64,000 bases of DNA from Alphaproteobacteria bacterium (GCA_018662925.1 JABJFC010000057.1:19194-83193), one strand, 5' to 3'; shown: positions 1,357 to 63,263, numbered from the stretch's first letter. Numbers and translations: made by a program. The notes: generated by a model from the letters alone, not told the origin.

Positions 1357-3174
1357 GTGACTGCACTTCGTAACATTGCCATTATTGCCCACGTGGACCA
1401 TGGAAAAACAACACTTGTGGATGCCATGCTGCAACAGAGTGGGGCCTATAGAGAGAACCAAGCTGTTACTGAGCGGGCCATGGATTCTGGGGATCTTGAG
1501 AAAGAGCGTGGCATAACCATTCTGGCTAAGTGCACCTCATTAATTTGGGATAAGACCCGTATCAACATTGTAGATACACCAGGCCATGCCGACTTTGGGG
1601 GCGAGGTAGAGCGGATCCTGGATATGGTGGATGGCGTGCTTTTGCTGGTGGACAGTGTGGATGGTCCCATGCCGCAGACCAAGTTTGTGTTGACCAAGGC
1701 TTTGAAACTGGGTCTTAAGCCTATTGTTGTGATAAATAAATCCGATCGTCCGGATGCGCGTGTTGACGAAGTTCATTCTGAAATATTTGACCTCTTTTCA
1801 GCATTGGATGCGACGGAAGAGCAACTAGACTTTCCAGTTATTTTCGCTTCTGCTAAGGAGGGCTGGGCCGTTGATGATATGGCAGATGAAAAGAATGGTG
1901 TCGGGCCCTTGTTCGATATGATCCTAAAGTATGTTCCGCTTCCAAAAGAATCCGTTGAAGAGCCCTTTTCATTCTTAGTATCTATGATGGACTATGATTC
2001 CTATTTGGGACGAGTTTTTACAGGCCGGATCCACGGTGGAATTGCAAATATAAATATGCCTCTCAAGGCATTGAACTTAAAGGGTGAAGTGGTAGAAGAG
2101 GGTCGTTTAACAAAGCTTTTAGCTTTTAGGAACTTGGGTAGGGAACCCATAGAGCACGCGGAAGCGGGTGATATTATTTCTATCGCTGGACTAAAGAATG
2201 TAACGGTTACGGATACCCTGTGTGCCATGAGTGTTGAAAAACCGTTGCCTGCGTTGCCCATTGATCCTCCCACATTGATGATGACTTTTTCGGTTAACGA
2301 TTCGCCCTTTGCGGGACGGGAAGGATCAAAGGTTACCTCACGTATGATTCGGGATCGTCTCTTCCAAGAGAAAGAAGGAAACGTCGCGATCCGCGTTAAG
2401 GAAAGCGAAGGCAAAGATTCATTCGAAGTTGCTGGTAGAGGGGAACTACAATTGGGTGTTCTGATTGAGACCATGCGACGTGAAGGTTTCGAGCTCTCCA
2501 TTAGCCGTCCTCGTGTTCTCTTTATGGATGATCCTGATACGGGCGCCAAACTTGAGCCTATGGAAGAGGCTCAGATCGATGTGGATGATGAATTCACAGG
2601 TGTTGTCATTGAAAAGATGGGGCTTCGAAAAGCAGAGTTATTAGACATGGCACCCTCAGGGGGCGGAAAGACGCGCTTGAAATTTATCATTCCAACACGT
2701 GGACTCATTGGATATCAGAACGAATTTATGTCTGACACGCGGGGAACAGGCGTAATGAGCCGCCTTTTCAGTGGATTTGCGCCTTACAAGGGAGAGATAG
2801 GATCCCGTCGTAATGGGGTGCTGATTTCCACTGAAACTGGAAAGGCAGTGGCTTATGCTCTTTGGAAACTAGAAGATCGTGGATTCATGGTCATTGATTC
2901 GGGGATGGATGTTTATAAAGGAATGATCATTGGAGAAAACAGTCGTCCCAATGACTTAGAAGTGAATCCCATCAAAGAGAAACAACTTACTAACGTTCGA
3001 GCGTCAGGAAAAGATGATGCGATTCAGCTTACACCACCCCGTAAGATGACTCTGGAGCAGTCTATGTCTTATATTGGTGACGATGAGCTGATTGAGGTTA
3101 CACCCAAGAACATCCGTTTAAGAAAACGTTATCTGGAGTCACATATTCGTAAGCGGGCTTCTAGGGAGCAATAA
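1357..3174 (+). CDS. typA: Translational GTPase TypA/BipA
   Basis: 605 aa; G1 motif [22 protein letters not shown]; EF-G-like domain organisation typical of BipA. Confidence 0.95.
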
Positions 3175-9195: not shown

Positions 9196-9271
9196 GTCCC
9201 CATCGTCTAGCGGTCTAGGACATTGCCCTTTCAAGGCGAAAACACGGGTTCGAGTCCCGTTGGGGACGCCA
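9196..9271 (+). tRNA. tRNA-Glu (anticodon UUC), CCA encoded
   Basis: manual cloverleaf fold: acceptor GTCCCCA/TGGGGAC, anticodon loop CTTTCAA, T-loop TTCGAGT; near-identical to proteobacterial tRNA-Glu. Confidence 0.9.
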
Positions 9272-9377
9272 TCCGTCTTCGCTTCGCTACGACGTGATAA
9301 TCCGTTAGGGTTAGAGAAGCTAGACGGGCTGATCAATACATTTTCGCTACATCCGTCTTCGTTTCTCTACGAAGTGA
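9271..9377. repeat. Two direct copies of a 27-nt repeat (ATCCGTCTTCGCTTCGCTACGACGTGA / ATCCGTCTTCGTTTCTCTACGAAGTGA) starting at the tRNA-Glu 3' end; an inverted copy occurs at 55665-55691
   Basis: read directly; copies at 9271-9297 and 9351-9377. Confidence 0.7.
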
Positions 9378-9516
9378 TATATCGCTACGATGGGCTACGC
9401 CTTTCCACAAGCAGCACTACGTAAAAATCTGCTGCCCTGTATCATTCCTTGCATTAGCAATCATTGGCTAAGCCTTAGGCTGCCATATGATTCCTTAGGA
9501 TCTGGATTCCAGGCAC

Positions 9517-9575
9517 TCTACTACTCACCGGATTAAGACGCCGGGTCGCCTAGAGTGCCTAAAGGTTCTGACATG
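9517..9575. repeat. Copy of dispersed repeat module Y (…caccggAttaagacgccggGtcgcctagagt…ggttctgacatgac)
   Basis: aligns with 27311-27370 and 55457-55515. Confidence 0.6.
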
Positions 9576-10116
9576 ACACCATTGTGCTCGAGGCTCATCT
9601 CTCTTTCCAGTCATCTGTTACTAGCCAAACAAATATTCTGATTTTTCAAGCCATTAAAACCTATTTCGTGTAATAAAAACGAACATCTAATAAATAGAAC
9701 GTAAAGGGATAGTTTTATTAATATTACACTACTTAAGGTTATTTGGTCACCGCATATAAAGGCTGGATGTGGAAAACTCTGTTGAAAAAATGAAATTCCT
9801 AATATTTATAGCTTTTTATTTGGGCCAACTTATCCACAGACATCAAAAAAGTGTTTTATATCAAAACGTTACCCTCTTCTTCTTTAGGTAAAAATTTTAT
9901 TTAATTTTTTTAAAATTTGCTATTGATTTTTTTTTTGAGCATGCTAGATTATAAATAACAATAACAAAAAAATTAGCACACATGACCACAGTGCATAACT
10001 CTTGGGGTGGACGTAATGTCCACCATTTTATTATCAGCAGCTTTTGTATTCGGAACCGAGAGGATCAACCAGAGTTGATTACTTCTTAAGTTGGTTTTGT
10101 TTCTTCGCATTCAGAA

Positions 10117-11037: not shown

Positions 11038-12600
11038 TTAATTATTTTTGCGCCTCAAAAAGGCTGGAATTTCCAGAGATTCTGTATCAATTTCATCCAA
11101 AGGAGAGTCGATTTGGTTAATCTTCGATGAGGAAGCCTGATTTTTGTTTCCGGAACTTTGGTCATGCCCTTTTTGTACGTGCGAAGAAGCTTCTGATTTG
11201 CGTGCCATGCCGGCTAATCTAGCAAAAAAGCCAGGGCGGCGAGTTTCTTTCTTCGCTGGAGCCTCTTCAGTTAGTTCTGCAAAAGCAGGAGGCGTTTCCT
11301 CTTCCTGGGGGAACAGGACAGTTTGTTCATTATTTCCCTCAATAACGCCCTTTTGAGCTTGGGATTCTTCGTCATTCTCTAGTATATGATCAAGATCTAG
11401 AGGATCTATTTCATCAGGAGAGGACAAGTCTGCTAAATCTTCGTTGCCTCCTTCTGTTTTATTTGCGGCTATTGAGCCCTCGAAAAGAGAAATAGTATCT
11501 GGAACTGAAGTTTGGGTTTGGTTTGATACAAAACCTTGATTTTGTGGGAGCGTAAAGCTCTCAGGAGATTCAATTCCAGTTGCAACAACGGATACACGTA
11601 TTTTTCCACTTAATTTTTCATCGAAAGTGGATCCAAAAATAATCTGTGCATTAGAGTCAACTTCATCCCTAACTCTATTTGCGGCTTCATCGACCTCAAA
11701 AAGGGTCATGTCATGGCCACCTGTTATGTTAATCAGAACGCCTCTTGCGCCCTTCATGGAAACATCGTCCAGAAGTGGATTAGAAATGGCCGCTTCTGCG
11801 GATTCAATGGCTCGGTTGTCGCCTTCGGCCTCTCCCGTTCCCATCATGGCTTTCCCCATTTCACTCATGACAGATCTTACGTCTGCAAAATCCAGATTAA
11901 TTAACCCAGGCATAATCATGAGGTCTGTGACCCCTCTGACACCAGAGTATAAAACATCGTCGGCCATTTTAAAGGCATCAGCAAAGGTCGTCTTTTCATT
12001 TGCAACGCGGAAGAGGTTTTGGTTGGGAATGATGATGAGTGTATCAACATGTTTCTGGAGTTCGTCGATCCCTTTCTCAGCTAAGCGCATGCGCTGGGCC
12101 CCTTCGAAGTGAAATGGCTTGGTTACAACGCCTACTGTAAGGATTCCTTTTTCACGGGCTGCTTGGGCAATTACTGGCGCGGCACCTGTTCCAGTTCCAC
12201 CACCCATTCCAGCCGTAATGAAGAGCATATGAGCACCGCTAATGTGCTCTTTGACCGTTTCGAGAGCTTCTTCTGCCGAAGCGCGCCCAACGTCTGGCCG
12301 AGAACCTGCTCCAAGTCCCTGTGTAATTTCAAAACCCAACTGAATTTTCTTTTCGGCTAGGGACTCACCTAAAGCCTGTGCATCCGTATTGCAGGCTGAA
12401 AATTCTGCGCCTTCTAGTTTAAGGCGAATCATGTTATTTACAGCATTGCCTCCTGCACCACCGACGCCGATCACTGAGATACGCGGTTTCAGATCTTTTA
12501 GATTTTCAACATTTGATGAAGTCGTTAAATCAAGGGGCTCAGTGGTGGTAGAGGTAGTCATTCTATGTTCTCCATGTTTATCAAAAGACCTGAGGGTCAA
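11038..12600 (-). CDS. ftsZ: Cell division protein FtsZ (long alphaproteobacterial-type C-terminal linker)
   Basis: [13 protein letters not shown] tubulin signature; 520 aa with acidic/Pro-rich linker and conserved C-terminal peptide. Confidence 0.97.
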
Positions 12601-12624: not shown

Positions 12625-13863
12625 CTAAAAATATTTTTGTATCCATGCTTGTAATCGTTCCACTACTCCCATGGACATTTTTCCTTCCGATAAGTAATAA
12701 GATCGAGATTGCAAAGCGAAGCTCAAAAGTCCGGCACTTGTTGCGAAAGAGGGCCCCGAGGCTGTTTCGCTTAATCCTTGTATATGCAGAGGTTTTCCCA
12801 GTCTTACCTGACGATCTAAGATAAGACTTGCGAGCTCTTTGATGCCAGCAATTTGACTGCCTCCTCCTGTGATCACCACGCGTCGGCTTGCTGCCTTTGC
12901 TAATTTATTTTGATCCAAATGATTTTTGACAATCTCAAGTATTTCTTCAAGTCTTGGGCGAATAATTTTGTTAAGGGTCGCTTTAGATATTTGAGTTGCT
13001 TGAGTTGGGTGGTCCTCCCCTATTTGGGGGACTACGATGGTTTCTTTTTCATCCTTTGGTGTGGAAATGGCACTTCCATAGAGTGTTTTAAGCCGCTCTG
13101 CTTGTATTACAGGGGTTGAAAGACCTTGAGCAATGTCATTGGTGATATGGATTCCTCCAATGGGGATGTTATCAATGTAGACACAGTGGCCTCCCATAAA
13201 CGAGGCAATATTTGTGCTCCCTCCTCCTAGATCTAAAACTGTTACGCCAAGATCTCTCTCATCTTCTACCAGGATTGCGAGACCCGAAGCATAGGCGGAG
13301 GACACAAAATCACACACGTCAAGATGACAGTGTTCTATACATGTGGATAAATTTCGAATGAGTCCTGTAGGAGAACTAATAACATGCAGACTGACACCCA
13401 ATCGTTCTCCATACATGCCTCGAGGATCTCTTATGCCACGATTCCCGTCAATAGTGTATCCGATAGGAAAGGCGTGAATTATTTTCTTTTCTCTCGTGCT
13501 AGAAATGGCTTGTTGGCTTTGACTCAATACCTTTTGGATATCTGAATCGGAAATCTCGTGTGAAGTGATCGGTGTATCAACATCTATAATTTGTGATGCT
13601 ACTTTTCCGGAAATACTCACAAAAACGTCGTGAATGGTTTCCTTCGCCATTTCCTCGGCATTCTGTACGGCATTTAGGGTCGCATTTACAGCGGCCTCCA
13701 TATCAACAATGAAGCCATTTTTGAGCCCTTTTGATAACTGATTTCCAAGGCCAATGACTTTTAAAGTATTATCTTCTTCGACGCGTGCAATAGCGCAGCA
13801 TATTTTCGTCGTTCCAATATCCAGTGCGGTAATTAAGTCATTCTTAGAAAAGGTTTTTTTCAT
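12625..13863 (-). CDS. ftsA: Cell division protein FtsA
   Basis: actin-like ATPase fold motifs (DIGTTKI, VLDLGGGST), position between ftsQ and ftsZ. Confidence 0.95.
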   Translation of the reverse strand: MKKTFSKNDLITALDIGTTKICCAIARVEEDNTLKVIGLGNQLSKGLKNGFIVDMEAAVNATLNAVQNAEEMAKETIHDVFVSISGKVASQIIDVDTPITSHEISDSDIQKVLSQSQQAISSTREKKIIHAFPIGYTIDGNRGIRDPRGMYGERLGVSLHVISSPTGLIRNLSTCIEHCHLDVCDFVSSAYASGLAILVEDERDLGVTVLDLGGGSTNIASFMGGHCVYIDNIPIGGIHITNDIAQGLSTPVIQAERLKTLYGSAISTPKDEKETIVVPQIGEDHPTQATQISKATLNKIIRPRLEEILEIVKNHLDQNKLAKAASRRVVITGGGSQIAGIKELASLILDRQVRLGKPLHIQGLSETASGPSFATSAGLLSFALQSRSYYLSEGKMSMGVVERLQAWIQKYF

Positions 13864-26879: not shown

Positions 26880-27123
26880 AAATAGCATTTCCAGGTGGGA
26901 TTATAGCCTACTTTGACGGGCTAGTGCTTTTAAATCACTGTGGATAAAGGCAAAAAAGAATTCGGCAGGCGAATATGTTTTTTCGCCCTCCATAATTTCA
27001 GCCAAGAGGAAAGCTTTAGATCCATCGTGACGGGCACACACTGGATGCATCGTGAGGGGAAGGCTCTGGATGCAATCATATACTGCGTTATCCGGCCCAT
27101 ACTGCGTTATCCGGTCCAAAATT

Positions 27124-27375
27124 CGTCTTCCCGGCCATTAGGAATTCTTAGCAAGCCGAAGGCGCGCTTTAGAATTTCTTATGAGCGCGGGATCCAGGGG
27201 CCGGGAGTAAGAGCTTTGAGATCAAATCCATATTATTGGGCACTTTTGGCACACTGATCTCTGGTTACTAATCCCTGAAAGCTGGATACCGAGATACCAA
27301 CTCACTCTAAGACTTGCCGGCTTAAGACGCCGGCTCGCCAAGAGTTCGTAGGTTCCGGCATGACGGCTATTTAAT
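27124..27375. repeat. Dispersed repeat family, composite copy: module X (27124-27196, …ccgtcttcccggccattaggaatt…cttatgagcgcgggatcc, with internal hairpin) plus module Y (27289-27375, …ataccaactcactctaag…ccggcttaagacgccgg…ggttccggcatgacgg)
   Basis: aligns with 55430-55620 (both modules, swapped order), 9517-9575 (Y), 46349-46385 (partial Y, inverted), 63186-63210 (X tail). Confidence 0.7.
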
Positions 27376-30458: not shown

Positions 30459-33400
30459 ATGCTGAATGGATCCAATACAAAAACAATTATAGCTCTATGT
30501 TTTAAGAGTCTGACAATATTCAATTATTATTTTTTTATTGTCGCTTTCTTGCTGATTCCTGAATATTCTCTCAGCACTCGTATTGGAATTTTTGAGGAGT
30601 CAGACGAACCTCCCCCAGGCTTCGAAGCTGTAGATGTTGCTGAAGAGACTAACTATGTGGAAGCCTATTTTTTCGGGAATTTGCTTGGTAGTTCTCTAAT
30701 GACATACCAAGATAACAAGGTAGTTATTAAAAATCCGGGCCTACTTGTAAAGAAAATGAAAGGGCTTAAAGATCCTGAAGCTGTCCTTAAAGCATTAACA
30801 GGAGAAATAGCTGGCAACTCAGAGTTAGCATGTAGTAATGAAAATGCACGACAACCCTGTGGAATTTTAAGTCCCAAAGTAGCTGCAGTTATTTATGACA
30901 GATTCAAAAGAGAATTGTCTATTTTTGTTAATGCAGATCTCTTAGACAAAAAAGAACTTGAATTTGATCAACTGCCACGATCAACGAGTAATTTTTCTTT
31001 CCTGAATAATGTTTTTGTGAATTCGACAGGGAGTAAACGAGAAAGGAACTATACTGTTAACAATAGAAATGTTTTTGCCTATAAAGAGGCATTTATAGAT
31101 ATTGACTCGAGTTATTTCCTGGATGAAGGTGATACGTCTTTATCTACTGTTGGTGAAAAGCGTTTTCGTTTCAGTACAATTACTGGAAATTTGAATAGAT
31201 GGAATAAGACATTTCAGATTGGAACTGTGAGAAATGAAGGAAGTAACTTTCTATCATCTCAGCTTCTTATAGGAGGTAAGTTTTTTACCACACTTAATCA
31301 ACTTACAGACCTAAATAGCGCCCAGTCGACTCCAATAGAGGTTTTCCTAGCTTTACCCGGGGAGGTCCAAGTTTTTAGGGATAAAAAACTTCTGTACGCT
31401 CAAAACTATACGGCTGGCAATCAGTTCATCAATACTTCTAGTTTTCCAGCAGGAAATTACGATGTTCAAATCAAAATTATTGACATAAATGGCAACGTAA
31501 CGGAAACAACACAGGCTTTTGTTAAGACGGAAGTTATTCCTCCATTTGATTATCCATTTTACTATGGGAGTTTTGGATTTATTGAAAATACAGCAAATAG
31601 AACTCAAGAGCTGTTTCCTCAGTTTTTTAATGATTTGGTTGGGCAGATGGGGACGGCTGTAAGAGTAGCTAACTCTTGGGCCTTAGCTGAAAATGTTCAG
31701 TTGGCTCGGAGTGTTGCTGCATCAGAGTCTAGTGTAATTTTTGTCGATTCTGACATAACGTTAAAGGTTGGTGGGTTAATTACAACAAAGAAAAATTATG
31801 GATACTTTTCGGATCTACGTTATAGAGCAAGTTTTTTTTCTGGAGGCGGAAATTTTCTTAGTATGTTTGGTCCAACAAAGGCTCAAAGGAACAAAATAGC
31901 TTCTGAATTTGACCCTGTTTCTGGGACGCGTGTAAGATATTCAGCCTTTCTTAATTTGCCTCTATATAAAGGAAATTTTTTGTTCAACACTAGTTATGGA
32001 AAATCAGATGTTGGGACAAAGAATAGAGCTTACACTGCCACCTTTAGTTATCCTCTTTACAGGGAAAGTGGCATTTTTGCAAATTGGTTAACAAGCTATA
32101 ATGTTAGAAATAACGACAGGCTCTATATATTTGGTATAAATGTGAGTTTTTCCCATGATAATTGGAGACACGCGTTTCGGGGGACTTACAATAGGGAGCA
32201 AGATATTGAAAATCAGCTTAGTGAACGTGATACACAGGATTATACTTTAAGTTCTGCTTGGACAAAATCTGAATCTGGGCGCTATGATTTGGGAGCAGGA
32301 GTGACTGGGAGTCATACTTCAGCGTCTGATTCTTTAAGGCCATCCGTATCATATAGCGATAATTTTGGGCGCTTTCAAAGCAGTGCGTCTTATAGCAAAC
32401 CTATTTCTGGGGCAATTAGTCGGCAGTTTAGTTTTTCGGGGGACACAAGTTTTATTGCTGCAGAAGAGAAGAGCGGTTTCTCGAACTCTTCCCGTAATAC
32501 TACGGGGATTTTTGTGGATGTAATATCTTCTGAGGCTGACCAGGAATTTGAAGTGCTCATTAATAACCGCCCTGCTCAAGTTATTAAGTCAGGAACTGCT
32601 GCATTCATACAACTGTCACCGTTCAAGACTTATATGGTTTCTATTAACTCCTTAGCGGGTAATCTGTATACGTATAATCCTGAACCAAAGTTTGTCACTT
32701 TGTATGAGAGTAATATTCAACCACTTTCGTGGGAAGTGCAAAAAGTGTTTTTGCTTATTTCACAGTTTGTAAGGCCTGATGGAAGTTTTGTCCAATATGC
32801 AGGTGTGGAAGGTGGAGTTGATTTAGCCCAAACAGATGAAAATGGGTATATTCAAGTTGAAATTCCTGAGGGGACAGAAAAATTGTTTGTTGAACCCATT
32901 GAAGGAGCTTTTTGTGAAGTTAAGGTTGGCGGGTTGGCTCCGGAAGATAACTATGTATATAAGGAGAGTATAGTCTGTGTTCCTACAAAGAAGAGGCCAA
33001 AAAGAATTGATAATAAAAGAGAGAATAAATATGAAGGGGAAGTTCTTTTTGAAGAACTTAAGAAGGATGAAACTTCAGAGGGGAAAATAGAAGGTGATAT
33101 ACCTGTTGTTACAGAAGAGGAGATTCAATCACCATCGCAGAAACAGCCAGATCATTTGAATGCTATCGATCCTGGAAAGACTAGTTTTGAGGAAGAGTCC
33201 ATGGAAGGAGTTCAAGATCAAAAAGAGATGGCAGAAGAGAGTATTCAAGAAGAAGTCGGTGCAGGAGTTTCTTCGCAAGAGAATATTCAGCCTGAAGATA
33301 ATATCGAGGATCTTGATGGAATTTCTTCAAAATCGAAACCAGTGATTGAAGAATCGGTGCACAGAGAAATACCAATGATTGATATCGATAAAAATATTAA

Positions 33401-34043
33401 TAAAACAACTGAGAACAAGAAAGCAACAAGATTTAGTAAAGAATTAGTTTATCAAGAAGGGAAGCCAGCTATTTCACCAAAACGAGCTAAGCCTATGAAT
33501 AAGAAGTTTAAGAAAGAACTGGTTCATCAAGAAGGGAAATCAGAAGGAGCTGAAAAGAAGGGTACATCTACAAACAAAAATTTTGAGAAAGAATTAGTTC
33601 ATCAGGAGGGCAAATTAGTTGATCTAGTAAAACAAGGCAAGGCATCGGGCAGACAGTCTGAAAAAGAACTGGTTTATCAAGTGCGTGATTCTTCAGTGAA
33701 CAGGGCAAGTGGTCAAGCAGTAAATCCTACTAGAGTGACTAAATCTGTAAAACGCCTAAAGGAGCTGGTATATCATGAGGTAATTCCTGCTGTTGAGAAA
33801 GCTATGAACAAAAAATCTACGCAACGCCCTGAAGTCGGTCCGACTAAGAATAAGGTTTACGGAGAGAATAGTCTATTAGGGATAGTTCCTAAAGAAAAAG
33901 CCAAAAAAGGTATCAAAACAGGGCCCATCCCAAAAAAGGCTGTGTATTATGAAAAAGGACATCCTGAAAGTCTTGGAGAAAAGACACCTTCCTCGAATAG
34001 AAAAGAGCTCGTTTATCGAGAAGTTTCTTTTCTAGAGCGGTAG
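30459..34043 (+). CDS. Giant (1194 aa) outer-membrane usher-like protein with C-terminal ~200-aa extension carrying six KELV[YH]QEG-type repeats
   Basis: N-terminal hydrophobic segment. Middle region (…GEVQVFRDKKLLYAQNYTAGNQFINTSSFPAGNYDVQIKIIDINGNVTETTQAFV…) resembles the conserved usher segment seen in the bona fide usher at 41041 (…VEVFINESTRL…GPFLIEDLPVISGEGDIKIVTTDLLGRRQEV…). Beta-rich Ser/Thr/Asn/Tyr composition. Repeats at ~33430-34040. Confidence 0.4.
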   Translation: MLNGSNTKTIIALCFKSLTIFNYYFFIVAFLLIPEYSLSTRIGIFEESDEPPPGFEAVDVAEETNYVEAYFFGNLLGSSLMTYQDNKVVIKNPGLLVKKMKGLKDPEAVLKALTGEIAGNSELACSNENARQPCGILSPKVAAVIYDRFKRELSIFVNADLLDKKELEFDQLPRSTSNFSFLNNVFVNSTGSKRERNYTVNNRNVFAYKEAFIDIDSSYFLDEGDTSLSTVGEKRFRFSTITGNLNRWNKTFQIGTVRNEGSNFLSSQLLIGGKFFTTLNQLTDLNSAQSTPIEVFLALPGEVQVFRDKKLLYAQNYTAGNQFINTSSFPAGNYDVQIKIIDINGNVTETTQAFVKTEVIPPFDYPFYYGSFGFIENTANRTQELFPQFFNDLVGQMGTAVRVANSWALAENVQLARSVAASESSVIFVDSDITLKVGGLITTKKNYGYFSDLRYRASFFSGGGNFLSMFGPTKAQRNKIASEFDPVSGTRVRYSAFLNLPLYKGNFLFNTSYGKSDVGTKNRAYTATFSYPLYRESGIFANWLTSYNVRNNDRLYIFGINVSFSHDNWRHAFRGTYNREQDIENQLSERDTQDYTLSSAWTKSESGRYDLGAGVTGSHTSASDSLRPSVSYSDNFGRFQSSASYSKPISGAISRQFSFSGDTSFIAAEEKSGFSNSSRNTTGIFVDVISSEADQEFEVLINNRPAQVIKSGTAAFIQLSPFKTYMVSINSLAGNLYTYNPEPKFVTLYESNIQPLSWEVQKVFLLISQFVRPDGSFVQYAGVEGGVDLAQTDENGYIQVEIPEGTEKLFVEPIEGAFCEVKVGGLAPEDNYVYKESIVCVPTKKRPKRIDNKRENKYEGEVLFEELKKDETSEGKIEGDIPVVTEEEIQSPSQKQPDHLNAIDPGKTSFEEESMEGVQDQKEMAEESIQEEVGAGVSSQENIQPEDNIEDLDGISSKSKPVIEESVHREIPMIDIDKNINKTTENKKATRFSKELVYQEGKPAISPKRAKPMNKKFKKELVHQEGKSEGAEKKGTSTNKNFEKELVHQEGKLVDLVKQGKASGRQSEKELVYQVRDSSVNRASGQAVNPTRVTKSVKRLKELVYHEVIPAVEKAMNKKSTQRPEVGPTKNKVYGENSLLGIVPKEKAKKGIKTGPIPKKAVYYEKGHPESLGEKTPSSNRKELVYREVSFLER

Positions 34044-36499: not shown

Positions 36500-37102
36500 A
36501 TGTCAGGAAAGTTTAGTAGCGTTAAACGTTTAAATGTATTTGCTGCAAGTGCTTTAGGCTTGGGGCTGCTCTTGTCTTCGTCAACAGGCATTAAGTCGGC
36601 GTCTGATAGTGATGATATAACTCTGACATTGGCTGTTGGACAACAGATCTTTATACAAGATTCCAGCATTGATAACATAGATTTTGGTACTGTTTCTGAG
36701 GTTACAAGCGGTGATTTAGATGGAACAGATGATCTATGTGTTTTTAGCAATGTGAAGTCAGGCACAGGTAATCAAACTAAGGCCTTTAAGCTTACACTTA
36801 CCACAGCAGAGACGGCAACCTTTCAATTGGAAGAGGACGGTGGAGCCGGCACGATAGCCTACTCTGTGGAATGGATTGATGAAATCGGAGGATCATTTGG
36901 TGATGGTGGAAATAGTACTGTAACGTATAACACCGCTGTTGACGATCAAACTGCGACAACCATTGGTCAGTGTCGAGGGTCGGGTGGAAATGACAATACG
37001 AAGTTGTTTATCCGAATACTTGAGGCAAACTATACTGAATTAGATGCTGCAACGTACAATGGTACTATTACTGCAGTGGTCGCTCAAGCTACGGGCACCT
37101 AA
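36500..37102 (+). CDS. SCPU/Csu-type pilin-like secreted protein, tandem paralog B1
   Basis: signal peptide; VGQQIFIQDSSIDNIDFG…LCVFSNV…GQCRG…YNGTITAVVAQATGT; ~80% identical to 37264. Confidence 0.5.
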   Translation: MSGKFSSVKRLNVFAASALGLGLLLSSSTGIKSASDSDDITLTLAVGQQIFIQDSSIDNIDFGTVSEVTSGDLDGTDDLCVFSNVKSGTGNQTKAFKLTLTTAETATFQLEEDGGAGTIAYSVEWIDEIGGSFGDGGNSTVTYNTAVDDQTATTIGQCRGSGGNDNTKLFIRILEANYTELDAATYNGTITAVVAQATGT

Positions 37103-37263: not shown

Positions 37264-37866
37264 ATGTTGAGGAAACTTCGTGGTATAGAATCGAGAGTTG
37301 TGTTGGGTGCAAGTTTTTTGGCATTTCTGGTGGCTTTTTTTCCTCCCACAGGCCTGAAGACTGCATCGGATAGCGATGACCTCACCTTAACAATCGCGGT
37401 CGGGCAACAGATATTTATACAAGATTCCAGCATTGACAATTTGGATTTTGGGACGTTAATTGAGTCTACAACTGGTAATTTAGATCAATCTGACGATCTT
37501 TGCGTTTTTAGCAATGTGAAGTCAGGAACAGGTAATCAAACTAAAGCCTTTAAGCTTACACTTACCACAGCAGAGACGGCAACTTTTCAACTGGAAGAAT
37601 CCGGTGGGTCAGGTACCGTTGCCTATTCTGTGGAATGGATTGATGAAATCGGAGGAGCATTTGGTGATGGTGGAAATAGTGCTGTAACATATAACACCGC
37701 TGTCGACGATCAGGCTGCGACGACTATTGGTCAATGCCGAGGATCGGGGGGAACTGACAATTCCAAGCTATTTGTGCGGATAATTGAAGCTAGCTATGAA
37801 GCATTGGATTCTGGGACGTACGATGGAACAATCACTGCAGTGGTCGCTCAAGCGACTGGGACGTGA
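37264..37866 (+). CDS. SCPU/Csu-type pilin-like secreted protein, tandem paralog B2
   Basis: same length (200 aa) and near-identical to 36500..37102. Confidence 0.5.
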   Translation: MLRKLRGIESRVVLGASFLAFLVAFFPPTGLKTASDSDDLTLTIAVGQQIFIQDSSIDNLDFGTLIESTTGNLDQSDDLCVFSNVKSGTGNQTKAFKLTLTTAETATFQLEESGGSGTVAYSVEWIDEIGGAFGDGGNSAVTYNTAVDDQAATTIGQCRGSGGTDNSKLFVRIIEASYEALDSGTYDGTITAVVAQATGT

Positions 37867-44314: not shown

Positions 44315-44992
44315 CTACGAAACCTTTCTCAAAGCCCGCTTCTCAAACACATGTACGATTTTTTCGCCATTCCAGTGATAAGACAGGTGGCGTTCTTGGC
44401 GGCAATTGCTTAGGACAGCAGCTTTAAAGGTTGCGGTACACAGGCCATCAGGTTGGCGAACGCTTTTGTACGTTAGGCCATTGGAATCTTCAGACTTTAG
44501 ACGAAGGGCGAGTGCTTGGGAATTTCCATAGTTGGTAGGGTGGTAAACATCAGATACATCCTCATTCAGGGTCCTGAGATCATGAAAGTCCCCCACTAGG
44601 TCTGCAACCAAGACGCGCATATCAATGAACATGGCCCCTTCCCCGGTTGCTCGGAGAAAGTTTTCCCGATGATAAGTGGTCTCGGCAATGGCGGTTTGCA
44701 GGTCGAAGGCCGCATAATACACGCCCCAAGAGCCATCACTAAAGCGGCTGCCACGCCTATTCTTGTGGGTAAAAGCTGCGGAGATATAGTTTGACGCAGG
44801 CTTTGTTCCGGCCGCATCTTTCCAGGCGGGGGCGCCACTGCGCAGCCGATCGTTGGTCATGCTTTCAATTTCGGCGAGGGCTCGGTGATTTTGTGGCCCG
44901 GCAATGCGTTCGAAAGGATTTACCGGGGGATACCGGCTGGGAATAATGCGCCAACAGGGAAGCCAGCGTATGGCACTTTTGGGTATCTTCAT
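44315..44992 (-). CDS. RES-domain toxin (NAD+-depleting ParT/MbcT-like)
   Basis: 225 aa; N-terminal W..WR..P.RY start typical of RES domain; 4-bp overlap with upstream antitoxin gene. Confidence 0.75.
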   Translation of the reverse strand: MKIPKSAIRWLPCWRIIPSRYPPVNPFERIAGPQNHRALAEIESMTNDRLRSGAPAWKDAAGTKPASNYISAAFTHKNRRGSRFSDGSWGVYYAAFDLQTAIAETTYHRENFLRATGEGAMFIDMRVLVADLVGDFHDLRTLNEDVSDVYHPTNYGNSQALALRLKSEDSNGLTYKSVRQPDGLCTATFKAAVLSNCRQERHLSYHWNGEKIVHVFEKRALRKVS

Positions 44993-45384
44993 GACCAGCC
45001 TCCGCGCTGGGCATCCAAATACTGGCGTACTTCAAATAGATCAACCACATTACCAGATAGCATCCGATCTAGGGCAGACTTCTCGTCAAAAGCCGTATTG
45101 CTTTTATGGATCCATTCATCGGCAATGCTAGGGTTGGGGAATAGAATCTGGAGGGCTTTGTAAATGCCTAAGATATAGGAAATCCGCTCTAGTGTATCTT
45201 TGGACAAAAGGCCATTTTTCTCTTTTTTCCATTTGAAAAAGGTGGAGCGGGATTCTAGGCCCAACAAATTCATTTGTTGCTCAGTATCAAGGTGCCAAAG
45301 ATTTGCAATGTTGAAAAATGCATCCAAGGCAGGGCGCGCCAAATCGCGACGATTAATCTCTTGTGAGGTACTTGTATCAACCAT
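44989..45384 (-). CDS. Xre-like/DUF2384 antitoxin (ParS/MbcA-like) partnered with the RES toxin
   Basis: 131 aa; C-terminal DUF2384-like toxin-binding region; operonic with RES gene. Confidence 0.7.
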   Translation of the reverse strand: MVDTSTSQEINRRDLARPALDAFFNIANLWHLDTEQQMNLLGLESRSTFFKWKKEKNGLLSKDTLERISYILGIYKALQILFPNPSIADEWIHKSNTAFDEKSALDRMLSGNVVDLFEVRQYLDAQRGGWS

Positions 45385-45548: not shown

Positions 45549-46349
45549 ATGGAGAGTTTCCAGATGAGCAGAATATCCAGTTTTTTCAGCAAGCCTTTGT
45601 TGGTTTTGGCGTTTATATTTGTTGGTACGACAGTTACTGAGGCATCTAGTAAAGTATTTGGGATGGAGGGGGCTACCTATTCTATGGTAGATAATTCAGA
45701 GTTTGAAGAAGACGGGAAAATGTATGCAGTGGTGCGGGCAACAGTTCAGAGTCAGTCGGAAGAGGAAGATTTCACTCAAGAGAAAGAGTTTGAGGTACGA
45801 GGATCCCACTCAAAGTATGCGTATCATGATGGTGAATTATATGCGACTGATGTTTTCAGTGTGAGTAGATTTATGCTCAACGAGGAAAGAACTCCTTTAG
45901 CTTCCCATATATTTAACCGTACGGAACAATATGGCTATGAGGCTTTAGGAGAAACCACTCTTAGAACAGCCTTGGAAGATGGTTGGGAGGCCGTTTTTAA
46001 AGGAACGCGCTTCCAAAGGCCTTTTGAGGGTGGTGAGTTTGTTCTTGAAGATGAGCAGCAGAATGATGAGCGTGTGAGAGAACAAAGGACAAAGGAAGCG
46101 AGTCTGAATTTTTCAATTTGTGTGCGGGAGTGGGATGAATTTTCAGGTTTTAAGAAAAAAAAGCGCCATTCCCTGAAGCAGTATGATGGTTACAAAGTTT
46201 CAAAAGTGACGGAGCATCGGATCCCTGGAGAAACAGAAATTAGTCGGACTGAAACTAAGGAATTAGAGCCAGGGGGAATATATACCACGACGACAGAGGC
46301 CCCTGAGTGTGCATCGGGACAAAAATTACGAGAGCTTAATCCTCTGTAA
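45549..46349 (+). CDS. Secreted acidic hypothetical protein
   Basis: signal peptide (…LLVLAFIFVGTTVTEA); Glu-rich; no recognisable domain. Confidence 0.4.
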   Translation: MESFQMSRISSFFSKPLLVLAFIFVGTTVTEASSKVFGMEGATYSMVDNSEFEEDGKMYAVVRATVQSQSEEEDFTQEKEFEVRGSHSKYAYHDGELYATDVFSVSRFMLNEERTPLASHIFNRTEQYGYEALGETTLRTALEDGWEAVFKGTRFQRPFEGGEFVLEDEQQNDERVREQRTKEASLNFSICVREWDEFSGFKKKKRHSLKQYDGYKVSKVTEHRIPGETEISRTETKELEPGGIYTTTTEAPECASGQKLRELNPL

Positions 46350-46489
46350 GTCTTAAGCCGGTGGGATCTAGAGGCACTTGGTATATCCTTCAGGCTTCCG
46401 GAAACAAGTTCAAGAAACGGAGGGCAGCAATGGTCAAAGCCATTAATCTGACCTCCGATTTGAGGCTGTTCTCTGCCCCTTGAGATATC

Positions 46490-54013: not shown

Positions 54014-54945
54014 TCATTCAAACAAACAGGAAACCGATCGTTCCTCACTAATCCGTCCAATAGCATCTGCCATCAAAGGCGCAACTGTGAGCTGTCTCAC
54101 CTTCGTTTCGGCGGTTACAGCTTCCGTTGCACGTATGCTGTCCGTAATGACCAATGACTCTAGAGGGGACTTGCGAACTTTCTCTAGAGCTCCGTCTGAC
54201 AGCACTCCGTGTGTGGAGTAGGCAGAGACGCTACGCGCTCCTGAATCCGTCAACGCTTGTGCAGCTTTACACAAGGTTCCGGCAGAATCTACAATGTCAT
54301 CAACAAGAATACAACGTTTATCTTTAATATTTCCGATAATATTCATAACGTCGGAAGTGCCCGGCTGCTCTCGCCTTTTATCAATAATGGCCAGATTGCA
54401 GTTTAGTCGTGTGGCAATCTCTCGAGCACGGGCAATACCGCCAATGTCAGGAGATACAATTGTGATGTCGTTGTCTGGGTATTGTTCTACTATATCGCGG
54501 TAGAAAACGGGGGCGGCATGTAAGTTGTCCACCTGAATGTCAAAAAAGCCTTGAATTTGATCCGTGTGAAGATCCAGAGTTAGAACACGGTTTGCTCCAG
54601 CCGTTGTGATGAGATTAGCGACAAGTTTTGCTGAAATGGGTGTTCGGGGGCCCGATTTTCGTCTTGGCGTGCGTATCCGAAATAGGGCATCACAGCGGTA
54701 ATGCGGCGGGCAGAACCTCTTTTGAGAGCATCGATGATAATCAAAAGCTCCATCAAGTGATCGTTGGTGGGGTAGGAGGTAGATTGAATCAAGAAAACAT
54801 CATCTCCTCGGACGCTTTCTTGTATTTCGACAAAAATTTCCTTATCGGCAAAACGTCGAATGATGGCCTTTGAAATTGGGACTGACAAATGGGTCGCGAT
54901 GTCATTCGCGAGGGGGATATTACTATTTCCGGCAAGGAGCTTCAT
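54014..54945 (-). pseudogene. prs: Ribose-phosphate pyrophosphokinase (prs) interrupted by a 1-nt frameshift near 54660/54661
   Basis: The ORFs 54580..54945 (N-terminal part, …[11 protein letters not shown]) and 54014..54532 (C-terminal part, VDNLHAAPVFY…) are both Prs. Reading the minus strand in the +1 frame after …YARQD gives [47 protein letters not shown], a perfect Prs continuation. One base appears to be missing in the Arg codon (gac[c]gaaaa). Confidence 0.85.
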
Positions 54946-55429
54946 GGCATTTTTCTTGATCGTTACAACTTGCCTTCTTTAGCACTTCTGATGGAATTTG
55001 TAAAATAGTAACCATATTTATTAACTTTTTGTAAAATTGGGGAAGTTTCCTATTTTCAATTTTGTAAAAAGGGTGTATAAAGGAAATAATAAGTAATAAA
55101 AAAAACAACACGGGGTTGGTTATGGTTAACAAAATCGTAAAGCGATTTGTACCTGCGAAAGATGTTTTCAAAGCTTTTGGCTTTGTTAGTTTTTTCTTTG
55201 TGCTAGGTTTCTCTCCTTTGGTTATGTTGAATGCAGCACAGACTGGAGAAGTCGTGCCTGAATCTACAAGTATGATGATTTTTGATATGGCCAAGGCGAA
55301 TGCGTTGGACTCATCGGGTGAAGGCAAAAATTCATTTCAGTTTTTTCTATTTCCTTAAACGGTCGTAGTTTCAAGTTACATGGGGAGTAAAGGGGGCAGT
55401 GTGCCCCCTTTTTTAGATTTCTGCTCCAT

Positions 55430-55620
55430 GGATCCCACGATACCAACTCACTCTAAGTCTCACCGGCTTAAGACGCCGGTTCGCCTAGAGTTCATAGGTT
55501 CTGGGAAGACGGGAATTGAGAGGATGCTAGAATACATGCCCCAAGCCGTCTTCCCGGCCATTAGGAATTATGGGCAAGCCGGAGGCGCGCCCATAATTCC
55601 TTATGAGCGCGGGATCCATC
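55430..55620. repeat. Dispersed repeat family, composite copy (module Y 55437-55515 then module X 55544-55620), bounded by GGATCC at both ends; internal inverted pair ctgggaagacgg / ccgtcttcccgg
   Basis: aligns base-by-base with 27124-27375 copy. Confidence 0.7.
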
Positions 55621-55646
55621 TTTCATAAATCAGAGAAGGTTCAAAA

Positions 55647-55691
55647 TCACGTCGTAGCGACCTGTCACGTCGTAGCGTAGCGCAGACGGAT
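55647..55691. repeat. Inverted copy (plus a half copy) of the 27-nt tRNA-Glu-adjacent repeat (tcacgtcgtagcgtagcgcagacggat)
   Basis: reverse complement matches 9271-9297 with 2-3 mismatches. Confidence 0.6.
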
Positions 55692-55706: not shown

Positions 55707-57224
55707 TCAATCCTGCACCATTTCCTGCAGAGCTTTATTATTAATCGTTACAGGGAAATGCTGTTGCAGAGCGCCGAGGAACTGTATGAAAATTTCCTGA
55801 TTCATCTCTTTTCCCAGATTTTGCCGGTAGGCTGTAAATTTAAAATGATCTTTTGCCAGCTTAGTTGGCGTGATTTTTGTAACCATAGCCACCAGATATC
55901 CCTTTGCGTTAGGAACAGCCGTTGCTTTTTTCACCGGAAGAGAAAATACCTGGGGTAAAAGGTTTTCAGGCAGGTCTTTAGGGGGAGATTGCATGGAGAC
56001 ACCTGAAACTTGCCTAGTTTTATAAAGGATTTTCCCCAGTTTTCCTGTGCCATTGATATTCTTGACCAAGGCAATAGCCTCTTTCTTCGCAAGATCAAAT
56101 TTGTTTGCCGCCATATATTTCTCTGAAACTTTCTTTTGGATGGTATTAAGGGGCGGCACGCTTTTGGAAACACTTTCCTCGGGCATGACAATATAAAATT
56201 TACCATCCTCTGTTTCCTTGAGATCGCTCTCAAAGTTTTGAGAGAGTTCAAAGCCTGTTTTGAGGATCTCCTTCGTAAAGGCAGAGTCTTTAAGGGCGTT
56301 TCGTCCCGAAGCTGTTTTACCCCTGACATCTACTTTTTCAAGCAGATGGAAAGAGAGCTTTAGGGCATTCGCAGACTCTTTAAGGGTCGCGCCTGAGGCG
56401 AGGGAATCCTCCAGTTCGTTGGCTTGCTTATAAATACGACTGAGAGCTTCCTGGCGATGTTCGTCATCTGAAAGTTCTGGGTGCTCTTTTTTTATGGCGG
56501 GGATTAATTTTTTTGGATCTAAAATGACAGAAGAAAGTGTTCTGCGCTCAGGCTCTACAAAGAGGTTCTTGTTTTCCTCATAGAACTTTTTAAGGGTCTC
56601 TTCGGAGGGCTTTTTAGAATACTTAACGCTCGAAAGAGGGATCTCTACGATCGTTAGGTTTCGTGTTTCCTGTGATTGCTTGAAAAGAGGGGCGGCGATT
56701 GGAGAGGGCGCATCTCCACCGACGGCAATCGCTTTCGTCAAAAATTCTTTCTTGAGGGCATCTCGGAGAAGATAAAGGTACCCTGATTCCGTTAGACCGC
56801 TATTGTACATGGCTGCATTGAATTTTTCCCGGTCAAACGTACCTGATTTAGTGCGAAACTGTGCGTGGACAATTTCGCGAATAGTATCATCACTAATGAC
56901 AAGTTTTAGCTTTTTGGCTTCTAAATCGAGGAGCTGGCCTTGGATTAGGTTCAGGAGAACCAATTGGGCAACTTCCATCTGAAGCATGGGGTCTGTGTCA
57001 ATTCTGCTGCCAAGTTTTTTACGAAGTCTATTAATTTCTTCGCGCATGGCACGACTGACTTGCGCCTTGGAAATGACATTATCGCCTACTTGAGCCACAT
57101 CGTCTCCCCCAAAGCGGCTCCGAAGTGAATCACCGACGCCCCACACTCCAAAACTGAGGATCAGGACGAAGAACAAGATTTTGGCAACCCATGAAGATGT
57201 ATGTTTGCGAATATATTGGAGCAT
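55707..57224 (-). CDS. ppiD: Periplasmic chaperone PpiD-like (SurA N-terminal domain plus parvulin-like PPIase)
   Basis: N-terminal TM anchor then SurA-like region (…VISKAQVSRAMREEINRLRKKLG…), 505 aa. Confidence 0.7.
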   Translation of the reverse strand: MLQYIRKHTSSWVAKILFFVLILSFGVWGVGDSLRSRFGGDDVAQVGDNVISKAQVSRAMREEINRLRKKLGSRIDTDPMLQMEVAQLVLLNLIQGQLLDLEAKKLKLVISDDTIREIVHAQFRTKSGTFDREKFNAAMYNSGLTESGYLYLLRDALKKEFLTKAIAVGGDAPSPIAAPLFKQSQETRNLTIVEIPLSSVKYSKKPSEETLKKFYEENKNLFVEPERRTLSSVILDPKKLIPAIKKEHPELSDDEHRQEALSRIYKQANELEDSLASGATLKESANALKLSFHLLEKVDVRGKTASGRNALKDSAFTKEILKTGFELSQNFESDLKETEDGKFYIVMPEESVSKSVPPLNTIQKKVSEKYMAANKFDLAKKEAIALVKNINGTGKLGKILYKTRQVSGVSMQSPPKDLPENLLPQVFSLPVKKATAVPNAKGYLVAMVTKITPTKLAKDHFKFTAYRQNLGKEMNQEIFIQFLGALQQHFPVTINNKALQEMVQD

Positions 57225-62678: not shown

Positions 62679-63185
62679 ATTGGTGCTGACAGAGTAGCTA
62701 TCTATCCTGGAACATTTGATCCCATAACTAAGGGCCACATAGATATTATCCAAAGGGCAGTTCCTCTTATGGATAGACTTGTTGTTGCCATTGCCAAGGA
62801 TACAACGAAAGATTCGCTTTTTTCCCTTAACGAACGATTGAGTCTTGTGCGTCAAGAGTTAGAATCTGTGGATGGTAAAGGATGTAAAATAGAGGTCCGT
62901 TCCTTTGAAGGCCTTTTGATTGATTTTTCAAAGGAAATCAAAAAAGAATTCAAGGCAGCTTCGTGTGTCATTGTGCGGGGCCTGCGGGTTGCTTCTGACT
63001 TTGAGTATGAATTCCAAATGGCGGGGATGAATAATAAGCTGAGTCCTGATTTTGAGACGCTCTTTCTCATGGCCTCCGATTGCTATCAATTTATTTCCTC
63101 CCGCTTTGTTCGTGAAATTGCCCGCTTGGGAGGAGACGTGACGCCCTTCGTTTCTGCTGCTGTAGTAAAGGCCTTGAAGCGCTAG
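62679..63185 (+). CDS. coaD: Phosphopantetheine adenylyltransferase CoaD; conserved N-terminus lies upstream of the first ATG (62769) with no canonical start codon in frame
   Basis: in-frame translation 62694-62768 gives VAIYPGTFDPITKGHIDIIQRAVPL (nucleotidyltransferase T/HxGH motif region); only ATT (62679) available as an initiator before the gyrA stop. Confidence 0.8.
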   Translation: MGADRVAIYPGTFDPITKGHIDIIQRAVPLMDRLVVAIAKDTTKDSLFSLNERLSLVRQELESVDGKGCKIEVRSFEGLLIDFSKEIKKEFKAASCVIVRGLRVASDFEYEFQMAGMNNKLSPDFETLFLMASDCYQFISSRFVREIARLGGDVTPFVSAAVVKALKR

Positions 63186-63263
63186 ATTTTCTTATGAGCT
63201 CGTGATCCAAGAAAACAAGCGTCCCCGTTTCAGGACAGCCTCTTTAAATATGGCAGGTTATCC

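Follow-up and report, generated by a model that had tools for sequence, protein, structure and literature searches.

The 64-kb window analysed here, by which we mean the whole stretch of DNA and to which all coordinates given without a contig handle refer, carries a family of short repeats at five extragenic sites. At 27 kb, the repeats lie between the divergent mraZ and methyltransferase genes, while the other four sites lie between convergent genes: a tRNA-Glu and an HTH gene at 9 kb, an ORF of unknown function and a PapD/SCPU operon at 46.35 kb, a small terminated ORF and a PpiD-like gene at 55 kb, and coaD and a DUF4143 gene at 63.18 kb. The sequence-only reading of this DNA had described two modules, X and Y, and all the copies that it reported are present within a few bases of where it had placed them (direct reading and a repeat finder). 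The features are as follows, with covariance-model scores referring to a model of Y.

9271-9297 (+): Z motif, beginning at the 3' end of the tRNA-Glu gene (repeat finder)
9351-9377 (+): second Z motif, 80 nt past the first (repeat finder)
~9452-9502 (+): degenerate X adjoining the Y at 9503, a weak match (nhmmer E 0.05; covariance model 12.4 bits, E 0.65)
9503-9579 (+): Y unit lacking 9 nt near its 5' end, with the GACAC variant of the tail (62.5 bits)
27080-27117 (+): two degenerate, X-head-like 19-nt tandem repeats (atactgcgttatccggYcc; direct reading)
27123-27196 (+): X unit (model matches on the minus strand, 56.7 bits, E 6e-13)
27197-27282: X-Y spacer, not related to those of other X-Y pairs
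27283-27366 (+): Y unit (106.5 bits)
46350-46387 (-): inverted 5' half of Y (nhmmer E 0.0026)
55429-55512 (+): Y unit, left half of a Y-X doublet (110.3 bits)
55513-55545: inner spacer of the 55-kb doublet (loop of the b/b' stem), common to the doublet at L006:4853-5045
55546-55618 (+): X unit, right half of the doublet (model matches on the minus strand, 46.2 bits)
55665-55691 (-): Z motif with a partial duplicate (~55640-55655), 16 nt past the stop of the PpiD-like gene
63179-63209 (+): 3' third of X (nhmmer E 0.006)
L006 ~13190-13216: inverted Z motif on another contig

The Y unit at 27283-27366 consists of a 5' tail (TGGAT), a long imperfect hairpin and a 3' tail ((A/T)GACGG), and it is 84% identical over 89 nt to the Y unit at 55429-55512; the core CCGGC-TTAAGAC-GCCGG is invariant in Y. 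The copy at 9503-9579 is the most decayed full Y, and the half-Y at 46350-46387 is broken in its own loop, exactly at the stop codon of the ORF 45549-46349. The X unit at 27123-27196 likewise has a 5' tail ((T/C)CGTCTT), a long imperfect hairpin (CCCGG...CGGG) and a 3' tail (ATCCA). At 55 kb, the 3' end of X, CGCGGGATCCA, is the inverted repeat of the 5' end of Y, TGGATCCCACG, and both the reported GGATCC bracketing of this copy and its internal ctgggaagacgg/ccgtcttcccgg inverted pair are present. The X remnant at 63179-63209 is the one unit that is not wholly extragenic, as it shares sequence with the final codons and TAG stop of a CoaD-like ORF (62769-63185). Searches with the core patterns, allowing up to three mismatches, returned 3, 3 and 2 matches against 0.00 expected from 100 shuffles, and a filter-free covariance-model scan of the whole window added no further copies.

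Two smaller elements accompany these units. A third short repeat, the Z motif (ATCCGTCTTCGCTTCGCTACGACGTGA), had been missed by the sequence-only reading. Z and X have a common CCGTCTTC head and, apart from the two copies next to tRNA-Glu, Z is found 45-190 bp past the X end of Y-X doublets, and it may represent an accessory motif in the style of the bacterial interspersed mosaic elements (BIMEs). Some X units, moreover, are preceded by two to three tandem copies of a 20-nt X head with an A-rich linker (L009:7845-7902, L008:11452-11483 and window 27080-27122). In the window, the A-rich linker runs up to 27122, and in L008 and L009 the extra heads 5' of X read CCGTCTTCCCGGCCATTAGG followed by TCCAAAA. 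These tandem heads could be repeated binding or cleavage sites, or the product of replication slippage.

Other repeats were noted along the same DNA. Two 44-nt direct repeats (95% identical; 1130-1239), each with three ATGTGAGA(T/A)T motifs, lie between a Fic gene and a translational-GTPase-like ORF (1357-3174) and may form a regulator-binding array. Four tandem 75-nt repeats (25 aa; 33430-33681) lie within a TcfC/usher-like ORF of 1194 aa (30459-34043), and a 300-nt direct repeat (78% identical; 36535-36834 and 37299-37598) corresponds to two adjacent paralogous ORFs of 200 aa (36500-37102 and 37264-37866), which may encode fimbrial subunits. The ribose-phosphate pyrophosphokinase gene at 54014-54945 (-) is split into ORFs of 121 and 172 aa, 47 nt apart, and may be a frameshift or a pseudogene.

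The units occur in both orientations relative to the neighbouring genes. It had been proposed that one copy sits exactly where an accessory island abuts mraZ and that another abuts the end of a pilin-chaperone operon at 46.35 kb. The first of these placements stands in that GC drops after 28 kb, the stretch from 27 to 46 kb carries fimbrial, methyltransferase and RES/Xre toxin-antitoxin genes, and the 27-kb copy lies between mraZ and this lower-GC accessory stretch; however, the sites other than those at 27 and 46 kb flank housekeeping genes (tRNA-Glu/DEAD helicase, PpiD-like, CoaD, H+-PPase, HemY, IF-1/HldE, accC/moxR and BatD). The 46.35-kb copy does adjoin the PapD/SCPU fimbrial operon, but chaperone-usher genes are found on both sides of it, and it is therefore not a clean island end. 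Because fimbrial genes continue past 46.4 kb and housekeeping genes flank the copies elsewhere, a specific link with island borders is not established.

Several neighbouring features deserve mention in their own right. The toxin-antitoxin pair, a RES-domain toxin and an Xre-like antitoxin, is encoded at 44315-45384 (-), among the chaperone-usher genes. In L006 (12388-13589; also in L103 and L010), the accC and moxR genes enclose an ORF of 151 aa that has no Pfam match and whose N terminus resembles a signal peptide. A Y-X-Z array borders this ORF on one side and an inverted Y on the opposite side, a geometry that resembles that of the 27-kb and 46-kb copies around accessory DNA. Finally, a strong intrinsic terminator hairpin (GGGGGCAGTGTGCCCCC and then a T run; 55389-55411, +) follows the small ORF at 55116-55358; it is directly upstream of the 55-kb Y-X doublet and outside the repeat.

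X and Y had been regarded as independent modules that occur together in swapped order. Comparison by nhmmer, consensus alignment and covariance model led us to abandon this idea, as X is a diverged Y in the opposite orientation. A covariance model built from Y only matches each of the seven full X copies over its whole length and on the opposite strand, with 44-60 bits (E 1e-8 to 1e-13), and the nhmmer profiles of Y and X cross-match end to end, also on the opposite strand, with E values of 4e-4 to 7e-3. Aligned with the X consensus in reverse complement, the Y consensus agrees in 53 of 84 columns (z 7.9; z 2.7 when only the inner bodies are compared). The consensus ends are TGGATCCCGCG...CCGGGAAGACGG for Y and CCGTCTTCCCGG...CGCGGGATCCA for X, the ends of X being the reverse complements of those of Y; in the orientation of Y, the tails are TGGAT (5') and AAGACGG (3'), and X bears the same tails inverted. 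With 11 copies of Y and seven of X considered, unit length ranges from 73 to 86 nt. X and Y represent two subfamilies that go back to a single extragenic palindromic repeat unit.

This also accounts for the arrangements. We found five Y-X pairs, three X-Y pairs, one Y-X-Y array, seen directly in L009, and two adjacent doublets in L008, with spacers of 30-125 nt within pairs, mostly unrelated in sequence. Y-X, X-Y and Y-X-Y are different stretches of one alternating BIME-like arrangement, and the apparently swapped order arises because the reading starts at different points of an alternating series.

The stem-loops had been noticed from the sequence alone, and a check of their structure shows that the fold is kept across copies, with compensatory changes. 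Each single unit folds by itself into a structure with CCCG/CGGG as its basal stem, followed by internal loops and, at the tip, a GC-rich hairpin; 4-7 bases at either end stay unpaired. In Y (11 copies), 98% of the consensus pair cells form and four pairs show changes on both sides; in X (seven copies), the figures are 97% and three pairs. None of 500 shuffles for Y, and one of 500 for X, matched the observed paired percentage and covariation score, although these statistics treat as independent copies that are related by descent and so overstate their independence. As a control, when the 3' partners were slid by 1-3 columns, only 12-58% of cells paired. Individual changes are easily followed: columns 14 and 74 of Y switch together from A-T to G-C (seven copies against four), the X stem variants CTTAGC/GCT..AG and ATGGGC/GCCCAT are clear, and the basal stem is kept between X and Y despite its different sequence (GA/TC versus GC/GC, and ACC/GGT versus CAT/ATG). 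All 11 copies of Y have the 7-nt loop TTAAGAC unchanged. Selection acts on hairpin formation.

Because units that face each other have complementary tails, four-way junctions are predicted for Y-X and X-Y pairs alike, and also for the Y-X-Y array; the predicted fold of the 55-kb doublet has z-scores of -7.7 (plus strand) and -10.0 (minus strand). The two strands of a unit are not equivalent. When folded with RNA energy parameters, 10 of 11 Y copies are more stable on the minus than on the plus strand (means of -36.4 and -30.8 kcal/mol), and the minus strand is richer in G.U pairs; for X, the plus strand is the more stable in five of seven copies. These preferences, Y(-) and X(+), correspond to the same strand relative to the element, 5'-CCGTCTTCCCGG...GGGATCCA-3', an asymmetry in keeping with each hairpin being recognized on one particular single strand. 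Within a doublet, the favoured strands of the two units fall on opposite DNA strands, which argues against one functional transcript spanning the doublet.

The family extends well beyond the window. A scan of metagenomes with the Y core returned at least seven loci, although one contig with the known 27-kb copy was not among them; leaving out L012, a chance match with a GC content of 67%, and counting two duplicated pairs once, four new loci were kept, all with a GC content of 43-47%. They hold eleven further units, seven Y and four X: L006 carries two Y-X doublets and an inverted Y, L008 carries X(-) Y(-) X(+) Y(+), L009 carries Y-X-Y and L011 a lone Y. The end of the L008 contig is a long (CTGACTG)n microsatellite (11780-11934), about 60 nt past the X/Y array. 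Because the proteins encoded next to these units (H+-pyrophosphatase, HldE and MoxR) occur in the accession series of the window's metagenome-assembled genome (MAG), we regard the loci as other sites of the same genome. The claim of a dispersed family, which would sit badly with copies confined to the window and lacking a conserved structure, is therefore upheld by copies outside it and by their common fold. The density is about one site per 12-15 kb in some 120 kb of this species' DNA; by extrapolation alone, this would suggest a genomic total of the order of 100 sites or more.

Comparison of copies indicates how they have spread. The 55-kb Y is identical to L008:11316-11397 over 82 nt, the 27-kb X is 98.7% identical to L008:11479-11557 over 79 nt, and the complete Y-spacer-X doublet at 55 kb forms a single 196-bp alignment (88.8%) with L006:4853-5045. 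Whole doublets have been copied, and single units, too, have undergone copying or conversion without their partners; some of the copy-and-paste signal could be mimicked by gene conversion from one copy to another. Among Y units, those that lack an intact partner score lowest, at 62.5 and 84.4 bits, with paired Y reaching 99-112, and remnants of decayed X are found beside them. There is no insertion polymorphism among the metagenome versions of the 27-kb and 55-kb loci, which are all 100% identical and were assembled identically in NCBI, ENA, JGI and Logan data, and several metagenome contigs terminate within the 55-kb array, which is what a multi-copy repeat would be expected to cause.

The host belongs to a phylogenetically isolated lineage, given that its nearest RsmH among the GTDB species representatives is at most 58% identical and its nearest PpiD homologues among 5.8 billion proteins are 25-36% identical. 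The MraZ, RsmH and PpiD-like proteins of the window are found as identical sequences in NCBI MAGs named 'Alphaproteobacteria bacterium' (for example, GCA_018664645.1) and in ENA, JGI and Logan data. The PpiD-like protein (55707-57224, -) has 505 aa, against about 610-675 in most homologues, and has retained the rotamase domain only in part. A gene for an ATP/ADP translocase (TLC) at L102:6642-8231, about 2 kb past the right end of the window, a Fic-domain gene at 37-1143 and an ankyrin-repeat gene on another contig of the species hint at a host-associated lifestyle.

Searches outside this species found no relatives of the family. The exact Y core has no match in the GTDB representative genomes or in viral contigs, the doublet has no blastn match in plasmids, and the covariance model found no related elements in 1.4 Mb of sequence that covers 80 other dcw loci of Alphaproteobacteria. 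With Rfam 15, only tRNA-Glu passes the gathering threshold over the window, and for the 55-kb array, with E values of up to 10, the best scores are 13-17 bits against thresholds of 50-100. Three other identities were tried and rejected. The tip of Y, a 5-6 bp stem with a 7-nt loop, resembles an anticodon arm, but neither ARAGORN (tRNA or tmRNA) nor Rfam gave a match, and the long hairpin accounts for the sequence better than a tRNA-like element. A circularly permuted ribozyme or structured RNA has no Rfam match, and the favoured strands of X and Y are opposite. A protein-coding repeat was suggested by the 82-aa ORF (55380-55628) across the Y-X doublet, for which 5.8 billion proteins include a single match, the ENA copy of that very ORF (99% identical).

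What the data describe is a family of X/Y units that has reached many sites between the genes of one marine, uncultured alphaproteobacterium, probably as non-autonomous mobile DNA acting through single-strand hairpins. We consider it likely that this is a lineage-specific family akin to the repetitive extragenic palindromes (REPs), BIMEs and REPINs, in which X and Y are one palindromic unit spread by a trans-acting enzyme that works on the folded single strand. Neighbouring units usually face each other, and their tails and basal stems can pair across to give a four-way junction or cruciform, comparable to the way REPs alternate in BIMEs and pair in REPINs. Spread would depend on an enzyme supplied in trans that recognizes the folded strand, presumably the favoured one, 5'-CCGTCTTCCCGG...GGGATCCA-3'. 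As no transposase or integrase was found among the 40 ORFs scanned in the window and the fetched loci, nor a transposase beside any copy, the mobilizing enzyme is one that we infer; it would most likely be an HUH/Y1 transposase (RAYT or IS200/IS605-like), which we favour because enzymes of this type leave no target duplication. A PDDEXK_2 gene was observed in L105, without adjoining units. Any effects on neighbouring genes, such as hairpins at the 3' ends of mRNAs or a replaced stop codon, would be by-products.

Other explanations have to be weighed against this one. It is unlikely that the unit, instead of being a passive REP-like repeat, serves as the substrate of an undescribed single-strand-specific mobilization system, or that the favoured-strand hairpin is a functional RNA or DNA ligand for a host protein. 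Such a system would recognize one strand of a nested hairpin of about 80 nt with complementary tails and an invariant loop, GUCUUAA on the favoured strand, and would copy it both as single units and as four-way-junction doublets, in a deep-branching and probably host-associated organism. We are equally doubtful about a classical miniature inverted-repeat transposable element (MITE), in which the Y-X doublet (190-270 bp) would be an internally deleted insertion sequence of the DDE-transposase type, mobilized through its 11-bp terminal inverted repeats, TGGATCCCGCG...CGCGGGATCCA. The sharp ends of the doublet, the perfect or near-perfect match of these repeats, a size within the MITE range and the copying of one doublet along with its inner spacer would all suit a MITE. 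Nevertheless, target-site duplications, which the sequence-only reading had proposed to look for, are absent from all ten boundaries examined, X-Y pairs have alternative outer ends (CCGTCTTCCCGG...CCGGGAAGACGG), single units are exchanged without their partners, and the interior is kept as a structure instead of decaying; moreover, no parent insertion sequence was seen, and the plasmid and viral collections gave no match.

A multi-copy structured RNA, with Y-X or X-Y transcribed as a four-way-junction small RNA, cis-regulator or ribozyme that tolerates circular permutation, would make sense of the very stable predicted folds (z -7.7 to -10), the compensatory changes, the TTAAGAC loop invariant in 11 of 11 Y copies and the excess of G.U pairs on one strand. 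We nonetheless judge it improbable: no single transcript has both units in the better-folding sense, orientation varies relative to the flanking genes, promoter or terminator signals inside the units are not above background, Rfam gives no match even at E values of up to 10, the spacers of 30-125 nt are mostly unrelated, and truncated and decayed copies exist. More improbable still are recombination or attachment sites at island borders, where inverted Y units would flank cargo moved by a site-specific recombinase or by homologous recombination. This idea draws on the X-Y(+) at 27.1-27.4 kb and the inverted half-Y at 46.35 kb, which flank 19 kb of partly low-GC accessory genes, and on the Y-X doublet and inverted Y that flank the 151-aa ORF between accC and moxR in L006; against it, most copies flank housekeeping genes only, the fimbrial genes extend past the 46.35-kb copy, the ORFs scanned include no integrase or recombinase, and two neighbouring copies have an even chance of lying inverted. 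Chance similarity, an assembly artefact or a protein-coding repeat can be set aside with near certainty, as the matches expected by chance are zero, the loci are assembled identically in four data sources, and the 82-aa ORF, called as a gene by some pipelines and occupying the one open frame of the Y consensus, is matched solely by its own ENA copy, the other five frames carrying stop codons.

Returning to the REP-like reading, the work describes a family of palindromic repeats in a marine alphaproteobacterium that is uncultured and phylogenetically isolated, and it reduces two apparently different modules to one unit in two orientations. In practical terms, these repeats break metagenome assemblies of this organism and generate spurious ORFs, such as that at 55380-55628, and they can supply or replace gene ends, as with the stop codon of coaD. 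Should a cognate transposase be found, the REP/RAYT or IS200/IS605 model would be extended to much longer nested hairpins; without one, the X/Y family would be an ordinary feature of a bacterial genome.

The assignment of these repeats to the REP/MITE type was broadly right, and the likeness to known systems can be made more precise. The REPs and BIMEs of E. coli and other Proteobacteria are built from palindromic units of about 20-40 nt, there named Y and Z, that alternate in orientation, and their copy numbers usually exceed 100 per genome. Following the descriptions of BIMEs in PMC2817692 and PMC3333891, both families consist of extragenic imperfect palindromes in two sequence subtypes of alternating orientation, with linkers, head-head and tail-tail, whose sequence varies; doublets and longer arrays occur in both, alongside extra short motifs (here, Z and the repeated X-heads), and both lie mostly at the 3' ends of genes, without target duplications. 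In contrast, the units described here, at 73-86 nt, are about twice as long as REP sequences, which are tabulated at 21-37 nt (PMC2817692), and they lack the conserved 5' GTAG/GTGG, the consensus having CTAG at a comparable place and GTAG being present only in the 27-kb copy. Their hairpin is nested, with a basal stem and a tip hairpin, they have no sequence similarity to REPs, and their host is an uncultured marine alphaproteobacterium. Given the unit length and the missing GTAG, the family falls outside formal REP/BIME membership.

REPINs are mobilized by RAYT Y1 transposases; in such a system, the inverted doublet, as the replicated unit, is more conserved than single copies, and the repeats flank a cognate single-copy RAYT gene, of which none occurs among the ORFs scanned in the window and the fetched loci. 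A REPIN consists of two inverted REPs around a spacer and folds as single-stranded DNA or mRNA; compensatory changes preserve the fold, and decaying singlets are left behind (PMC3116915). Similarly, an inverted doublet with a variable spacer here appears to be copied as a unit, folds when single-stranded, has unpaired tails and compensatory changes, and is accompanied by singlets that resemble decayed remnants (PMC3116915). The two REPs of a REPIN, however, pair into one long hairpin, whereas each unit here is a complete hairpin and partners would pair through tails and basal stems into a four-way junction. Single units here also seem to move or convert without their partners; in this small sample, one doublet was copied with its spacer, yet single units are common to loci that do not have their partners in common.

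Modular or MITE-like repeats offer a further comparison, made here by description only: the pneumococcal BOX (boxA-boxB-boxC), the enterobacterial ERIC, the Neisseria Correia and the Rickettsia palindromic elements. They resemble the X/Y family in being composites of about 100-250 bp with terminal inverted repeats and stable predicted folds, dispersed between genes and occasionally overlapping gene ends. The modules of BOX are unrelated boxes, whereas those described here are inverted copies of each other; unlike Correia elements, the X/Y units show no TA or other target duplication, and unlike Rickettsia palindromic elements they do not insert in frame inside genes. Rickettsia palindromic elements occur in host-associated Alphaproteobacteria, and the organism that carries the X/Y family is also an alphaproteobacterium and encodes an ATP/ADP translocase.
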